Source: Candidatus Baldrarchaeum yapensis (GTDB taxonomy: Archaea > Asgardarchaeota > Baldrarchaeia > Baldrarchaeales > Baldrarchaeaceae). From it: a stretch of 31,109 nt of DNA. Both the position numbers and the translations under genes were made by a program. Of this stretch, positions 1,457-24,879 are shown piece after piece; the stretch's first letter is position 1; each line of letters begins with the position of its first letter. Where the stretch lies: the NCBI GenBank assembly GCA_016840465.1, contig JAEOSH010000019.1, forward strand, positions 1-31,109, given 5' to 3'. The notes beneath the pieces are model-generated. The model was given only the letters and a program-made list of their open reading frames with translations, made no database searches and had not been told where the DNA came from.

Positions 1457-2110
1457 TTAATGTTTCTGCCCCTCACTCGTTGTCTTCGCGTCCAGCACGC
1501 CCTTCTTCTTTCTCAGCTCCACCTCTATTATCATCCTCGCGAGTTTGTAAAATGCCTTATCTACATTATCACCTCGTATCGCGCAAGTCTCGATATAAGG
1601 GACAGGAAGCTCAAGTATATTTTCGAGTTCCTTTGCAAGTTCCATTCCCAACTCCGTAGTGATGTGCGGAAATACCTTATCTCGTAAGTCTATCTTATTT
1701 GCGACAAGCACTATGGGAACCTTGTACCCGCAGTTCTTCAGGAGTTCCATTACCCAGAGCGGTACGTTTCTGAACGATGCGAGGTTTGAAACGTCATATA
1801 CGACCATAGCCCCGCGTGCGCCTTTATAGAAAGGCGCCCTTACTTCCTTAAAATGTGGTTGTCCCGCAAGATCCCAAATTTGGAACGTTATCATAGCTCT
1901 ATTTCCGATGGTTATCCTTTTTATTGAGAAATCGACGCCGAGGGTGGGAATATACTCCTCATGCAAACTCTCTCCCATAAATTTCTTCCTTAGAGTCGTC
2001 TTTCCGCAACCTCCATCCCCTATGAGGACAATCTTGCACGCTATGTGAATTTGACTCATAAACATGACCTCAAAGTCGCGTTTTCTGAGAGCAAACCGGA
2101 ACGTGCTCAT
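1457..2110 (-). CDS. Rab-like small GTPase (Ras superfamily)
   Basis: G1 GDGGCGKT, G2 YIPTLGVDF, G3 WDLAGQ, G4 NKID, G5 TCA. RabF-like LGVDF, FQIW, FYKGA and VVYDVS. No C-terminal Cys prenylation motif. The start may be a downstream Met. Confidence 0.93.
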   Translation of the reverse strand: MSTFRFALRKRDFEVMFMSQIHIACKIVLIGDGGCGKTTLRKKFMGESLHEEYIPTLGVDFSIKRITIGNRAMITFQIWDLAGQPHFKEVRAPFYKGARGAMVVYDVSNLASFRNVPLWVMELLKNCGYKVPIVLVANKIDLRDKVFPHITTELGMELAKELENILELPVPYIETCAIRGDNVDKAFYKLARMIIEVELRKKKGVLDAKTTSEGQKH

Positions 2111-3631: not shown

Positions 3632-4771
3632 ATGTACATGGTCACGCTGATGCCCGGACTCGAAGAAGTAGCGTCGCAGGAAATCTCCGAGTTGGGAGGA
3701 AAGATAATCGAGATAAGATCGGGTCACGGAAGGATTCTCTTCGAGGGAGATATCGACCTGATACCCAAACTTAACTATCTCGCGAGGACGATAGAAAGGG
3801 TCCTCGCCCTGCTAACAGTCGAGAAGTTTCAAACGCTCGATGACATATACAAGATAGTGAAGTCGCTCGACTTCCGCGAGTGGATAAGGCCTGACCAATC
3901 CTTTGCAATAAGACCACTAAGGGTGGGGGAGCATGACTTTACATCGATAGATGTCGGGAGAGTTGCGGGTCAGGCGGTCATAGACAACTACCTCGAGGCC
4001 AAAGGCGTCCGGTTAAAGGTAAACCTCAACAATCCAGATGTGATAATAAGAGTGGACGTGATATTCGACACCGTATACGTGGGTATCGATACCACAGGGG
4101 ATACGGCACTTCACAAACGCGGATACAGGATCTACCAGCACCCGGCTCCTTTAAATCCATCTATTGCCGCATCACTCATCCGGCTTGCCGGATGGAAGGT
4201 AGATGAAAGATTTCTCGATCCCATGTGCGGTAGCGGCACAATACTAATAGAAGCGGCCATGATGGGGCGTAATATCCCTCCCGGAAAATTCAGAGTTACA
4301 AATTATGCCTTTCATAAAATACTCGGGGAAGATACACTGAAAAGGGTCATGGCGTCTGTTCAAGAGAAAAGGGATCTCTTAATGGAACTGTATGGGGTGG
4401 AGAAATTCAGGAAGCACATCAAGGGAGCACTTATAAACGCGGACAAGGCGGGAGTGTTTGACACCATAACAGTAATAAGAGGCGATGCAACCCGGCTCGA
4501 GGAACTTTTTAGAGATCCGTTCGACGTCGTAGTCGTTAATCCTCCTTACGGTTTGAGGATTGCAAGAAAGGGCATAATCAGGGATTTGTACTTTGGTTTT
4601 CTTAGATCGCTGAAAAACCTGTTGCATGAACGGTCACGAGTCGTAATAATAACATCTGAGGACGAAGTTCTCAGAAGCGCAGCCATGAAGAACAAGTACG
4701 TGATACGTAGGGAAATGCGAGTAAAGTACGGCGACCTGGACACAACAGTTTTCCTCATGGGGATAACTTAA
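3632..4771 (+). CDS. trm14: THUMP-domain tRNA m2G methyltransferase (Trm14-like)
   Basis: N-terminal GLEEVASQE, THUMP region, LHKRGYR, DPMCGSGT and NPPYG. Start is 3614 (GTG) or 3632 (ATG). Confidence 0.85.
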   Translation: MYMVTLMPGLEEVASQEISELGGKIIEIRSGHGRILFEGDIDLIPKLNYLARTIERVLALLTVEKFQTLDDIYKIVKSLDFREWIRPDQSFAIRPLRVGEHDFTSIDVGRVAGQAVIDNYLEAKGVRLKVNLNNPDVIIRVDVIFDTVYVGIDTTGDTALHKRGYRIYQHPAPLNPSIAASLIRLAGWKVDERFLDPMCGSGTILIEAAMMGRNIPPGKFRVTNYAFHKILGEDTLKRVMASVQEKRDLLMELYGVEKFRKHIKGALINADKAGVFDTITVIRGDATRLEELFRDPFDVVVVNPPYGLRIARKGIIRDLYFGFLRSLKNLLHERSRVVIITSEDEVLRSAAMKNKYVIRREMRVKYGDLDTTVFLMGIT

Positions 4772-16368: not shown

Positions 16369-18103
16369 TCAAATTTGCAGTTTATCTGGCGACAGAACTT
16401 TATGTCTTTGTCTTCTTCGAATTACATATACGATCGCCCCAACAGAAGCTATTATCGCTGTTGTAATAATTATGTAGAGGTACGATGAGGGAATTTTGAA
16501 AATGGTGGGCTTTACAACATTGAAAACTACAGATACCATTTTCTCGTTACCTGCTAAGTCCACTGCCTTTATTTTCACTATGTGGGATCCCAAGGTTAAA
16601 TTGAAAAGCGTGTAGCTATTACTTCTGCCTATATCAACCTAAGGCCCATTATCAATACTTATACAGAAGTGATCCACTGCGGTTTCGTCATCTCTTGCCA
16701 TCCACTTAATAGTCACATGATTTTCTCCGATAGATGATCCGTTTTGGGGAGATGGAACAGTTATCGTGGGCGGATTCTTGTCGATAGTCTTGAACTCTCC
16801 GTAGTAAATGTAGCGTGGATCCAAATATATAGCTCTGGTGCTTCCATAAGTTAAATTCGAAAATTCGTAAGTTACCGTCACATAGGAGATTTCATTCTTC
16901 ATTTGCGTTATGGTCACTTCCGCCTGTCTAGCAACGTAACTAGTTGCGTTAATGCCGAGAAATTCTCTATCAAGATGGACCGTAGAAATGGTCCTATTAT
17001 TGTACTCGTAAACGTAAGTACCATTTTCAAACTGCTTTGAAGGCAAAATGCTTGTTACATTAAAATAGCCCGGACTTATTTCTTTTGTCACCACTACATC
17101 GTGAATAATTATCATTTTTATTGAAAAAGACTCTCCGGCCTCTAGTTCCTTATAATTGTCATCGATGAGTTCATAAATCTTGAAGTCTGCAACGTCGATT
17201 ATGAAACTAACCTTTAAATCGATCCTATCCTCCTTTTTCACCACTGTGGTTACAAAGTGCACGGTAACATTTGAAACATGATCACCGAAGCGTGCTGTCA
17301 CATTGTGAAACGTAGTGTTCCATCGAATTACAGGATATATGCCATCGTAGGCTGTAGAGACATTGGAGATCGACACCTTGCTTACATTGTAAAAGTCCAC
17401 CTTTATATCATGGATCCATATCGCATTGATCATTGCAACAGACATGAGTGTCTCCTGCCCCATCTTGTAGTAGTAGGAGAAATCGTATCTTGCGTATCCT
17501 TCTACAAAATTCTGGCCGTACTTTGTTTCATTTTCTATCCATTTTGCTACATGTATCAATAAGTAAACGTCTTTCGAAATCGAGACGTTCAGTCTATGTG
17601 AAAATAGCCACGTTATTTTCATGTAAATGTCATCTCTTACATTGACGGAGGAAGTATTATAACTGCTAGTCAGATCGTAATGCGGCATAGAGAGTCTTAA
17701 TACCTCTTCAGGAACCTCTATAAGCATTTTATCCGAGGAAATGTTATTTCCGGCGCCGTCGACCGCCACCACGAACCACGTGTAATTACCGGCTCTCTCA
17801 AATTTGATCGCTTTCTCGTAATATCCGCTTGTCGCGTTAAAGATCATCTCCCAGCTAGTCGAATTGATAACTAATAGAGACATTTACGATATCGTTGTCC
17901 GGGTCTGTAATATTTGCGCAGAAAACTACTACACTGGTATTTACTACCGAATTGTTACTTGGTAATAAGGATACTATGACAGGTGGAGATTGTTTCTCTG
18001 CACATACAGGTTTTCCTGTTTGAAGAAGGGGAATGAATGGTGAAACTCCTAAGAAGATCAGTATTGTTAGTACAGAAAGAACAAAATCATATTTTTTTCT
18101 CAC
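16369..18103 (-). pseudogene. Secreted, C-terminally anchored Ig-like surface glycoprotein, split into three tracked ORFs
   Basis: Signal-like N-terminus (17855-18103). Frameshift at an AG repeat ~17876-17880 (NDIVNVS/LLVINST). In-frame TAG at 16641-16639 in DNGP*VDIG, expected W. Ig-like VVAVDGAGN and VKIKAVDLAGN motifs, many N-x-S/T sequons, C-terminal TM plus RRRQR. Confidence 0.8.
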
Positions 18104-20344: not shown

Positions 20345-21916
20345 TTAGAAAATGTTTTCCTTCTCGACCCACTCTGGGAACCACATGTAGTGCTCAAGCG
20401 GGTACGCTTTCTTCAGCCCTGCGTATGTTGGCCTTACCATGGCAATTCTTCCTTTTCTATCCCTGAATAGCTTTACAAGACCCTTTTCTTCGAGAGATAG
20501 CAGTATCTGATCGAGTCTATCGTCACTGACCTCTATATAATCCTTTATGTCGTCTTTTGTCATGTAAAGACCCGGATTCACGACGTAGTTGTCTGCCAGT
20601 ATTTTCAGAATGTCCTCCTCGGTAACCTCGTCTTTCTTTATTTTTTGAGGTGGAATGTTCGTCGGAATCGGGACCTTGATCTCGGGGTCGAAGTAGCGGT
20701 AGACTTTCTTAAATACGTCCCTCATGATCCTGGGTCCCTGCCTGAAGAGTATCAGGCGCATGATCTCGTTTGTTCCGGCAACTATTGGCATTACACGTGC
20801 GGCTCTCCATATCGACTCCACGGGGTAGAACTTCGTCCAGCCGTCCCCTCCCATGCACCGTATTGCATCGTCCGCTATTTTCAGTAGTGACTCGCTGGCA
20901 AAGAGTTTAGCAGCAGTTGCGTCGAGAAGAGGTTGATATCCTTGATCCATCATGTACGCAGTGTAATAAATGAGCAATCTGCTGAGCCTATACCTCCAAA
21001 TCATGTCCGCGATCTTGAACTGGTTGTTGACAAGATCTGATGTCCTCGCGTTAAACTGCACCCTTCTTGTAGTGTGATAAAACGCATTCCTAATAGCTTC
21101 TTTCATCGGCCCCAGACATCCCGCCGCCACAACCGTCCTCTCAAGGTTGAATCCACTCATCATAATGAGCCAGCCATCTCCCTCTCTTCCCAGCCTATTC
21201 TCAACGGGAACCCTGACCTCATCGAGGTCTAAGTATCCGTTATAGACTCCTTCCCATCCGCATAACTCGTTTATTCTCTCCACCTTGAAGCCGGGTCTTC
21301 CCTTCTCCACAATAAACGCGGAAAGGTGGCGATACCTTGCTCTGTCCTCGGGTTTATCGCTTGTGCGTGCATAAACTATATACATGTCGGCAACTCCGGC
21401 ATTCGTGATATATCTCTTCTTCCCGGTTATTACATATTCATCTCCGTCCCTGATGGCTACAGTCTCTACGCTTGCGGCATCTGATCCAACATAAGGCTCG
21501 GTAACGCACACTCCTGTGAGAATTTCTCCTTTTGCTATCTTAGGAAGCCATTTCTCCTTTTGCTCCTTTGTCCCAAAATGAACAATCTGATGCGTACCTC
21601 CGAACATCGTGTCACTAAATGCGGTCCCAACAGCCCCTAGTCTCGACAGCTCTTCAGCAAGAATGCAACATCCGGTCACTCCGTAGTCTTTGCCAAGCCC
21701 TTCGTACTCCTCAGGAATCAGAACGCCGAACCATCCTCTCTTTGCAACTTCCTTTATCAGTTCCCATGGAAACTTACGCTTCCACATGTAAATGTATGAC
21801 TTATGCAGGTTTTCATCCGCGAACACCTCAACCTCGTCGGCAAGCTTGCGTTGCTTTTCGTTCCACCATGGGAACTTCTCCAAGATGATCCCCTCACGAG
21901 TTTTAGCCTGCGGCAA
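20345..21916 (-). CDS. Acyl-CoA dehydrogenase with a ~125-aa C-terminal winged-helix-like extension
   Basis: VTEPYVGSDA, GKKRYITNA, helix-G FNLERT (IVD/LCAD-type Glu), MGGDGW and GTNEIMR; C-terminal LEEKGLVKL-type wHTH segment. Confidence 0.9.
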   Translation of the reverse strand: MPQAKTREGIILEKFPWWNEKQRKLADEVEVFADENLHKSYIYMWKRKFPWELIKEVAKRGWFGVLIPEEYEGLGKDYGVTGCCILAEELSRLGAVGTAFSDTMFGGTHQIVHFGTKEQKEKWLPKIAKGEILTGVCVTEPYVGSDAASVETVAIRDGDEYVITGKKRYITNAGVADMYIVYARTSDKPEDRARYRHLSAFIVEKGRPGFKVERINELCGWEGVYNGYLDLDEVRVPVENRLGREGDGWLIMMSGFNLERTVVAAGCLGPMKEAIRNAFYHTTRRVQFNARTSDLVNNQFKIADMIWRYRLSRLLIYYTAYMMDQGYQPLLDATAAKLFASESLLKIADDAIRCMGGDGWTKFYPVESIWRAARVMPIVAGTNEIMRLILFRQGPRIMRDVFKKVYRYFDPEIKVPIPTNIPPQKIKKDEVTEEDILKILADNYVVNPGLYMTKDDIKDYIEVSDDRLDQILLSLEEKGLVKLFRDRKGRIAMVRPTYAGLKKAYPLEHYMWFPEWVEKENIF

Positions 21917-22194
21917 ATATCCTTAAAAGTTGATAAAAATAAAGGTTCTCTCGCAGCCGAAGAGGTCTTAAATCCCCCATTCAACTAATTGAGTCGTCAG
22001 ATAGCTATGGACAAATATCATTGCCCATAATCCTCCCCTAAAGCCTTCCTCCTAATCACGGCTCCTCCTTTTATACATGCACTCTCGAGGCGATCCAATA
22101 AATGCTGACGAAAAACACTAAGTCTGTAGCCCCCACATCACTCTCTGTATGTCTGGGGTAATTCGAAATTTTTACTTTCCAACTTTACAAGTTT

Positions 22195-23105
22195 TTACTT
22201 TATTGCTTCCCAAACGCCATTAATCATCTTTTCGTATTTTGTGAGGCTTAGTACATCTCTCGCGGAGCTTATTCCTCCCTTCCTGTGTGCAATAAGTAGA
22301 TATTCCCTGACCCTTTCAATATGCCTTCTCACCTCAGGATCGGTGTCCGAGCATCCTATGTCGTAGCTTATTAGTAGGTAAAAACCGTTCCCGATATCTT
22401 CGATGAACATCTTCTCATCACCCGTTATGAACGATGTACAAGCATAACCTTTTGATTTCAGCCTTGTCATAAGCGTTGCGAGTATCGACGCCTCAAATGC
22501 TATTTTATCGGTATTAACATCTTCCTTTTCTCCCCCTTTCATAGTTGTATGCAAATAATGGAACTCGGGCTTCACTAAATATCATCATCCTACGTGGGCG
22601 AGGCCTTACCTGTTTCTTTCGTCCTCTTAGGGTTGATATCAGAATCGACGGAAGAAAGCCCCCGATAAATGTTAGCAGTATTAAAAGTTGCAATGGCAAC
22701 GGTAGCTGTACAACTTCTCCCCGCGGCTGTGCGGCTGTACGAGAACAACGACCGTTATATTCAAGTCAACCGGAAACTCAACATACTTCTTGCCCATCGA
22801 GTACACGACGAGAACTAGTGTACAGGTGCCATTTACCCAACCGTCAGACGGCATTACATATCCACTTATTGAAAAGCTTTGCCTGCTGGTGATCGTAACG
22901 TTTGCGATGAAGTTCTCACAAAGCGCATTGTCTCCCAATAGGAGTCTTGCGTATATTGATAGAACTTTGCGGTAGGCCGATGGATCCTATTACTGAAGAT
23001 TGCCTCGAACACTAACGGTGAGTCTTGTAATATCCTGTCATTCAATACTCCAAAGTTCACAAGTTCTCTGAATGACGTCATGAACGTCACGTTAATGTTT
23101 TTCAT
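22195..23105 (-). pseudogene. Fragmented membrane protein: beta-rich ectodomain, TM helix and cytoplasmic longin-like domain
   Basis: Four tracked ORFs join after three lesions: a 1-nt shift near 22985, an 8-bp tandem duplication at 22723-22738, and an extra base in the run at 22532-22536. TM LPLQLLILLTFIGGFLPSILIST, then a basic stop-transfer segment, then a longin-like pattern. More degraded sequence may extend to ~23517. Confidence 0.6.
22723..22738 (+). repeat. 8-bp tandem duplication GCGGCTGT-GCGGCTGT
   Basis: Seen directly; deleting one copy restores the frame VQPRGEVVQLPLPL. Confidence 0.85.
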
Positions 23106-23775
23106 TGTTACGACTTCCGAAAAAAATAATTTATGTGCTTTACGGGAATAAGTTCTCCAATGCTCTCCCTCTATCTAAGTCTACTTGCGATTGTTCATTT
23201 ATTTCATGGAATGAGAGTGATCTTGATGAATTTCTTTAATGGAACGAATCAAACGCCTTTTTCCATTCGCATAATGACACTCTGCATGAGTATTATGATT
23301 CCGTCGGCATATGTTTTAGCGATGCTATTTTGTGTACTCGGTCTCATAGCGGCATTAGGGATCAGCGTAATGATAGCGGTGTCATATGGACTTTTTCTGG
23401 CTTAAAGAGCAGTTTGGAGTGGAGGTATCTTCCTGGTATTTTCATCTCGGCGGCTGTTTCAACATTTATTGTGATTTTGCTGAAAAGTTGTTTTAATCCG
23501 AAGTCCTTGTTTGGCAATGTTCTTTACCTTTTCACGAGTGGTATTATATAATTTTTTATACAATATTATACGACGTTATTGCCAATATTTGGCGGCATTA
23601 ACGCCAAAGATCTGAGAAATATTGGGAGATTTTTCGAAGAAATGCGAATAATCGGGAAATTTGTAAAGTTTGCACTGAGAGTTGAAGAAAAGGTGCTACG
23701 GATGACGAGGAAGTTCCGATCCTAGTAACAACTGTTATGAATTTTCCGTGATGACTTTTATAATGGGTGATAGTA

Positions 23776-24879
23776 ATGGCATCTCCGGTAAGAAAACTAG
23801 CAGACTTAATTGCGGGATATAGTGTGGAGGTTAGGAAGAGTGATGATGTTGTAATAAGAGCTACCATGGCAGCAATGCCGCTCTTAGTGGAACTTTACAG
23901 AGCGATCGTTGAGAGAGGTGGGTACCCAATACCTATGCTTACCGATGAGTTGCTCATAGAGACGTTTTACAGATATGCGGATGATGAAGTTCTGAAGCAC
24001 GTCTCACCGATTGAAAAGTTCATTCAGGAGAAAGCAAATGTCATGATAAGGATACTCTCCGATACCCACACGAAGTTCATGAGTTCGATAGACCCCGAGA
24101 AGGTGAAGATTGCCAACGCGGCGAGAATAGAGCTTACGAAAATATTTCTCGAGAGGAGTGCGAAGAAGGAGTTGAGATGGACCGTTGCACCGTATCCCAC
24201 GAAGGCGCTCGCCCAGGAGGCAGGTATGAGCTTCTTCGAGTATGAAGAGTTCGTTTATAGAGCGTGTGCTGTTCATCTCGATGATCCGATTTCCTTCTGG
24301 AAGAAGAAGGGAGAAGAGCAGAAAAAGATAATAGAACTATTGAGTAAGGTCTCGGAGCTGCGCTTTGTTGCCGAGGATACGGATCTAACTGTTAGGGTGG
24401 ATGGTAGAGTCTGGGTCAACGATGATGGTCATGAGAACATGCCGGGCGGGGAAGTCTTTACAGCACCGATAGAGGATAGCGTCGAGGGGCGGATAAGGTT
24501 CACATACCCGGCGATTTGGAGAGGTGTGGAGGTTGAGGATGTCATGTTAGTTTTCAGAAAAGGGGAGGTTGTCGAGGCGAGGGCCAGACGCGGGGAGGAG
24601 TTCTTAAGAAGGATCTTAGAAACCGACGAGGGCGCAAAGAGGGTTGGAGAGTTGGCGTTCGGTCTAAACTACTACATAGATAAATTTACGAAGAACATAC
24701 TGTTCGATGAAAAGATCGGTGGAACTATACACATGGCACTGGGTGCCGCTTATCCGGAGACAGGAGGCAAAAATGTTTCCGCCATTCACTGGGATATGAT
24801 AAAAGACATGAAGAGGGGAAAGGTTTACGCGGATGGAGATTTGATATACGAGAATGGAAAGTTTGTTGTGGAGTTGTAG
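23776..24879 (+). CDS. M29 family aminopeptidase (AmpS/PepS-like thermophilic metalloprotease)
   Basis: ENMPGGEVFTAP, GELAFG, LFDEKIGGTIHMALG and SAIHWDM. Confidence 0.93.
   Translation: MASPVRKLADLIAGYSVEVRKSDDVVIRATMAAMPLLVELYRAIVERGGYPIPMLTDELLIETFYRYADDEVLKHVSPIEKFIQEKANVMIRILSDTHTKFMSSIDPEKVKIANAARIELTKIFLERSAKKELRWTVAPYPTKALAQEAGMSFFEYEEFVYRACAVHLDDPISFWKKKGEEQKKIIELLSKVSELRFVAEDTDLTVRVDGRVWVNDDGHENMPGGEVFTAPIEDSVEGRIRFTYPAIWRGVEVEDVMLVFRKGEVVEARARRGEEFLRRILETDEGAKRVGELAFGLNYYIDKFTKNILFDEKIGGTIHMALGAAYPETGGKNVSAIHWDMIKDMKRGKVYADGDLIYENGKFVVEL

Follow-up and report, generated by a model that had tools for sequence, protein, structure and literature searches.

In eukaryotes, longin and roadblock domains act as docking platforms that place small GTPases on membranes, and many of both are found in Asgard archaea. 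The longin SNAREs are tail-anchored proteins that lack an ectodomain and carry their longin domain N-terminally. Asgard proteins with longin or roadblock domains have been described as either soluble or fused to GTPase, roadblock, TRAPPC3 or Vps28-C domains (PMC10933270, PMC11188069), and our literature searches found no description of a protein in which an ectodomain, a transmembrane helix and a longin domain follow one another. Here we analyse a locus within a 31,109 nucleotide stretch of DNA from Candidatus Baldrarchaeum yapensis (contig JAEOSH010000019.1, positions 1 to 31,109; the whole stretch is referred to as the window). A preliminary description of the window had read positions 22195-23105 as a cryptic receptor-like gene with this order of parts. 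We find that the locus is a true pseudogene, quite likely the decayed remains of an Asgard gene that once encoded a type-I surface protein with a single membrane pass and, probably, a longin-like tail.

The longin proteins compared were synbindin/TRAPPC4 (2zmv), Bet5/Trs23, VAMP7, Sec22b (1ifq), AP sigma, COPI zeta, Lst4, Nprl2, Fuzzy and the Lokiarchaeal Roadblock-Longin protein (8yqg). The locus differs from these known longins in that the putative longin domain lies C-terminal to the membrane helix, behind an extracellular domain, and in that no Pfam longin model matches it. The Roadblock/LC7-MglB-LAMTOR proteins, of which the genome encodes at least nine, are alike in having a related alpha/beta sandwich and in forming a membrane-proximal docking platform for small GTPases. 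They are unlike it in starting with a helix and in lacking the second C-terminal helix; the roadblock model PF03259 gives no match to the window's domain, which has a strand-like start right after a basic linker. The Njord-type proteins described below share with the locus a homologous immunoglobulin (Ig)-like domain, linker and helix, the same order of parts, and an inner domain of the same size directly behind the basic stretch. Unlike the relic, they are intact, with a signal peptide and ∼235 more ectodomain residues, and their inner domain has no sequence similarity to that of the relic.

The locus is made up of four overlapping open pieces on the minus strand (22866-23105, 22681-22938, 22514-22699 and 22195-22575), and all of the peptides quoted in the preliminary description were found within them, distributed over three frames. 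The first two pieces constitute the remnant of an ectodomain (22681-23105), which begins at a fortuitous ATG. From its alignment to positions 238-353 of a family hidden Markov model (HMM) and from tblastn, this remnant is a membrane-proximal beta-sandwich of the Ig-like type. The predicted transmembrane helix, a hydrophobic run of 26 residues (LPLPLQLLILLTFIGGFLPSILISTL, 22628-22705, minus strand), follows, and the alignment to the family HMM reaches into it, as far as position 381. Directly after the helix stands a basic juxtamembrane stretch (RGRKKQVRPRPRR, 22589-22627, minus strand), which, by the established positive-inside rule, would place the C-terminal domain in the cytoplasm. This last part is an alpha/beta domain of ∼130 amino acids (22198-22588, minus strand), read through one extra base as a single four-letter step (P0010).

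The intact relatives are proteins of 524-553 amino acids (P0002, P0003, P0006-P0009) from Njordarchaeales-type Asgard metagenome-assembled genomes (MAGs; Candidatus Njordarchaeota archaeon GB_136, JZ-1.bin_83), which belong to one genus of the same GTDB phylum; they first came up as weak matches to the second piece. They consist of a signal peptide, a beta-sandwich ectodomain with weak hints of NPCBM_assoc/PEGA type, a single membrane helix and, at the C-terminus, a conserved domain of ∼135 amino acids. An HMM made from six of these relatives matches the window's Ig-like piece with an E value of 4e-13 and, when run against the six-frame set of the whole genome, finds this locus with an E value of 7e-12. 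Residues 5-149 of the read-through align to positions 238-381 of the 527 in the model (60.6 bits), a span that runs from the last Ig-like domain through the linker and the membrane helix, and tblastn against the six intact relatives gives 31-39% identity over 67-90 residues (E 7e-10 to 1e-7). Since a single read-through aligns to the family HMM over all three of these parts, the pieces belong to one former gene. The order of ectodomain, helix and inner domain is genuine and is found intact in the relatives; the longin fold proposed for the inner domain of the relic is probable but unproven. The suggested check for intact orthologues in related genomes yielded relatives of the Ig-like and membrane part, whereas the inner domain finds no counterpart by sequence.

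The Njord-type family is small, with four clusters in 5.8 billion proteins and four loci in 185,579 species genomes; it is present in four of the five genomes of its taxonomic family and nowhere else among 400 genomes of the phylum. Weak matches of the Ig-like piece in two genomes (G010 and G145) proved to be unrelated enzymes, and its matches in giant Asgard surface proteins of 2,700-4,800 amino acids fall on Ig-like repeats in the interior of those proteins, away from the membrane-proximal position.

Five public metagenome runs, labelled as hydrothermal vent, sediment or seawater, each contain 92% or more of the words sampled from the stretch. Four of these runs, representing four studies, supplied Logan contigs with depths of 31-95, each spanning 21900-23800 unbroken, for comparison with the window. 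Over this span they differ from it in three places only: a C is inserted behind 22985 in all four assemblies (CCC, as against CC in the window), TTTCT is inserted after 23548, again in all four, and T is replaced by G at 22227 in three of the four. Because the extra C is found in all four public assemblies, the apparent first frameshift (22985-22986), where it is lacking, is probably an error or a rare variant of this assembly. Adding the C brings ...AIFSNRDPSAYRKV... into frame and gives a first open reading frame (ORF) of 141 amino acids. Other indels in this MAG may also be assembly errors.

The two remaining frameshifts are unchanged from the window in all four independent assemblies and are on that account real. 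One is a perfect 8-bp tandem duplication (ACAGCCGC ACAGCCGC, 22723-22738, minus strand), which throws the reading out of frame immediately ahead of the membrane helix; deleting one copy of ACAGCCGC joins the second and third pieces, giving ...VLVQPRGEVVQ.... The other is a +1 frameshift caused by a 1-nt indel, located in an interval that is open in both frames (22517-22574, minus strand), where one base must be skipped to join the third and fourth pieces. Its likeliest site is the G5 run at 22532-22536 together with the two adjacent A runs. In the protein catalogue the last piece is present in eight near-identical versions (NCBI, ENA, JGI, GEM and Logan), every one of them 115-126 amino acids long, so the gene is split wherever it has been assembled. 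There is no in-frame stop inside the three reading segments. The family HMM found no second or intact copy of the receptor elsewhere in the six-frame set of the genome. With real lesions in the population and no intact copy, the locus is a true pseudogene, and the earlier impression that this copy looks dead is upheld by the two shared frameshifts, by the lack of an intact copy and by the loss of the 5' end.

This 5' end would have carried the signal peptide and the N-terminal ectodomain modules (HMM positions 1-237), for which there is no alignment before residue 5; tblastn of 23106-23766 likewise gave no remnant of the N-terminal ectodomain. The first ∼235 codons are lost, the signal peptide among them. 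Next to the break, on the plus strand, a polysaccharide flippase gene of Wzx/MATE type is represented by its C-terminal third (23133-23405, continuing in another frame to ∼23618), a remnant that is itself 5'-truncated and frameshifted. It has 40% identity to residues 356-433 of a 546-amino-acid Polysacc_synt protein encoded elsewhere in the same genome, on the minus strand of contig C68 (G000:C68; L062:1298-2938). The two truncated remnants meet head to head in a breakpoint interval of ∼60 bp (23106-23168), with receptor homology beginning at residue 5 of its ORF and flippase homology at residue 13 of the plus-strand ORF that starts at 23133. As two 5'-truncated genes abut here, it is probable that a single deletion took both gene heads and the region between them.

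The inactivation of the gene took at least three forms. A deletion cost it ∼235 5' codons, including those of the signal peptide, and probably also took the head of the divergent flippase gene and any shared promoter region; the tandem duplication destroys the frame ahead of the membrane helix; and the 1-nt indel in the homopolymer region severs the first two strands from the cytoplasmic domain. Given these three lesions, the relic does nothing now.

In the intact relatives, the cytoplasmic domain is clearly predicted to have a longin fold, an assignment well supported by a confident model. AlphaFold2 (AF2), supplied with six sequences, gave a predicted local distance difference test (pLDDT) of 86.7, a predicted template modelling (pTM) score of 0.82 and the order E-E-H-E-E-E-H-H. 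The top rows of a Foldseek search with this model belong almost entirely to the roadblock/longin superfamily, and alignments with roadblock chains end at about residue 120 and have lower Z. Invariant motifs of the domain are SGEW, NAEKWIF and C-H-A-NE. A predicted complex of two copies scored 0.01, a value that is not evidence either way.

On balance, the cytoplasmic domain of the relic probably also had a longin-type fold, albeit a divergent one, as judged from the order of its elements, its equivalent position and size, and its language-model neighbours. The order beta-beta-alpha-beta-beta-beta-alpha-alpha can be read in the read-through, with no helix ahead of the first strand, and the tail is equivalent in position and size to the longin domain of the relatives. 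In the ESM-Atlas feature search, the nearest clusters are Asgard proteins of 108-151 amino acids (0.86-0.89). The nearest named clusters (0.86-0.87) are the first longin of FUZ/MON1/HPS1, the clathrin-adaptor small chain and Fuz_longin_1 (on 34% of members), followed by SRP-alpha_N and Sybindin. When the longin domain of the relatives was used as a control, it shared the top-ranked named cluster (438 members) with a score of 0.80, and it also matched a clathrin-adaptor cluster identical in name and size and a FUZ/MON1/HPS1 longin cluster of similar name (0.80). Fuz_longin_1 itself has matches in 312 of the 400 genomes of the phylum; these, the Ras-family and Robl_LC7 matches in the genome of the window and the taxa of the Atlas clusters all mark the phylum as Asgard.

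Several results weigh against a longin-tailed receptor and the history proposed for it. Atlas scores below 0.9 are leads only. Alignment of the relic tail to the longin of the relatives has an hhalign probability of 0.3%, the family HMM is silent on the last two pieces, and the score of the relic domain against a profile built from 24 Asgard Fuz_longin_1-type proteins is at noise level. No ancestral arrangement that would support the single deletion was found. Linkage to a GTPase gene is absent in this genome and in four Njord-type genomes.

Other searches by sequence were equally silent. Pfam and NCBIfam gave only noise on all four pieces (with Pfam, no match at E values up to 1), and the curated longin families PF13774 Longin, PF19036 Fuz_longin_1, PF01217, PF04099 and PF04628 do not match the relic domain. 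An exhaustive phmmer search of 1.84 billion representatives, with the last piece as query, found nothing but the piece itself, its own genome holds no paralogue of the tail, and the SGEW, NAEKWIF and C-H-A-NE motifs are missing from the read-through. Weak matches of the last piece in relatives were to HisA and are spurious. However, the validated longin domain of the relatives is just as silent against the Fuz_longin_1-type profile and the Pfam longin families, so that the sequence tests have no power here and their silence weighs little. Semi-global alignments with shuffles gave z values of 1.2-1.4 for the relic and 1.1 for the positive control. The read-through tail, modelled by AF2 with no alignment, reached a pLDDT of 53.6 and a pTM of 0.50; this low-confidence model has the order E-H-E-E-H-H-H, with strands merged or missing, and wide searches with it (Foldseek and VIA-align) were uninformative, the best matches being ferredoxin-like. 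The longin order claimed in the preliminary description is thus readable in the repaired protein, but is confirmed neither by the model nor by the sequence searches.

It is possible, if rather unlikely, that the inner domain was a small alpha/beta fold other than longin (roadblock, ferredoxin-like or lineage-specific), an unrelated module joined to the Ig-like stalk and helix. Such an origin would account for the lack of similarity to the longin of the relatives when the adjacent Ig-like domain keeps 31-39% identity, and it agrees with the ferredoxin-like matches of the tail model. That model, however, is too poor to weigh, and the order of elements fits longin. A roadblock fold requires a helix before the first strand, in the place where the membrane helix and basic linker stand, and the Atlas neighbours are almost all of longin type, with the same top-ranked named cluster as the validated longin.

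The continuity between the last piece (22195-22575) and the rest might instead be accidental, the piece being an independent small gene behind a broken surface-protein gene. Although the gene callers of several sources do report it as a protein of 115-126 amino acids, and it has no homology to the tail of the relatives, we consider this improbable: it has no homologue anywhere among the 1.84 billion representatives, and in the intact relatives an equally large domain stands at the same place. In addition, the preceding frame overlaps the last piece by ∼60 nt across homopolymer runs, and its two strand-like segments after the basic linker complete the domain. More improbable still is an intact and functional gene, the breaks being assembly errors or bypassed by programmed frameshifting. 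One of the three breaks is indeed lacking in four other assemblies, the 1-nt shift sits in a homopolymer region, and the three reading segments have accrued no in-frame stop. Nevertheless, the duplication and the 1-nt shift are the same in four independent assemblies at depths of 31-95, and all catalogued calls are split. Two shifts in opposite directions, combined with a lost signal peptide and promoter side, are moreover unlike programmed frameshifting.

If the locus is the relic of a single-pass surface protein, the former product would have had Ig-like beta-sandwich domains outside the cell and one membrane helix, leading through a strongly basic juxtamembrane stretch to an alpha/beta domain of ∼130 amino acids in the cytoplasm. 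In intact relatives, a glycosylated Ig-like ectodomain might contact a ligand, the cell envelope or another cell, while the membrane-tethered longin could offer a cytoplasmic partner a docking platform just beneath the membrane. If known longin and roadblock platforms are a guide, this partner could be a small GTPase or an adaptor. A surface protein with a longin domain right behind its membrane helix would, if this is true, connect the cell exterior in a simple, physical way to the small-GTPase docking machinery. The window copy is dead and divergent, so that it cannot be studied functionally; it has nevertheless led to the Njordarchaeales-type family, which is intact, confidently modelled, expressible and testable. 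The comparison suggests a variable inner module with a conserved stalk. A wider proposal, which we regard as doubtful, is that the relic and its Njord-type relatives represent a broad, undescribed class of Asgard single-pass receptors, in which the tethered longin would serve to recruit small GTPases or trafficking machinery, or to regulate them, and the inner module would be swapped between lineages while the Ig-like stalk and helix are kept. The locus is also a clean case of gene decay in an Asgard MAG, one in which one apparent frameshift is probably an assembly error.

The preliminary description had connected the receptor with a Rab-like gene in the same window. This gene is a real member of the Ras family (1457-2110, minus strand; Pfam Ras, E 7.5e-43), but the link to GTPase signalling found no support: the two loci are 20 kb apart, and the genome has 11 Ras-family matches on ten contigs, this gene among them. 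In the four Njord-type genomes, which have 5-12 Ras-family genes each, the nearest of these lies 17 kb or 56 kb from the receptor gene, or on another contig. A functional pairing of the receptor with the GTPase gene is therefore unsupported. The genome has 10 Robl_LC7 matches, nine of them above the curated cut-off, and several of its Ras-family genes lie within 1-2 kb of Robl_LC7 genes (contigs C83, C30 and C64), for instance 4123-4596 with 5619-5858 on C83 and 40820-41152 with 41594-41866 on C30. Pairing of GTPase and roadblock genes thus does occur in this genome, though not at the pseudogene locus.

Downstream of the intact receptor gene, two Njord-type genomes of one genus have genes for a 342-amino-acid secreted Ig-like protein and for three helical proteins of 193-211 amino acids that belong to no family (L026 8283-14401, G023:C3; L027 578-6669, G033:C11). 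Further downstream in both are genes for an AAA ATPase with a helical N-terminal region before the AAA domain, a 397-amino-acid protein and a 224-amino-acid membrane protein. Against the CdvC model, the ATPase gives an end-to-end alignment of 201.7 bits, which is under the curated cut-off of 650, and a reading of its sequence led to the proposal of an MIT-like domain. From sequence, the downstream set may be ESCRT-III/Vps4-like. On the wider, doubtful proposal above, with a CdvC/Vps4-like ATPase and helical proteins beside the receptor, its output could lie in the remodelling of membranes and not in GTPase signalling. The whole Njord-type longin model is also matched in the ESM Atlas by a cluster of 88 Promethearchaeota proteins of ∼764 amino acids (TM score 0.63 by query, residues 6-146), which, on the strength of this structural match, may be another large protein with a longin module.

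Three other features of the window were recorded. On the minus strand at 16372-17883, an Ig-domain surface protein of 414 amino acids (weak Big_7 and Big_3_4 hints) is cut off halfway through an Ig-like domain by an in-frame TAG. Past the TAG, the frame continues for 89 residues, which comprise the rest of the Ig-like domain, a membrane helix and RRRQRHK. Either this second surface-protein gene is broken as well, or its stop is read through. An acyl-CoA dehydrogenase of 523 amino acids is encoded on the minus strand at 20345-21916, and ∼130 residues past its last ACAD domain have no Pfam match. Finally, the first 1000 positions have a guanine-plus-cytosine content of 0.61, compared with ∼0.47, and contain a DDE transposase ORF on the minus strand (80-790; PF01609, E 3.6e-12).
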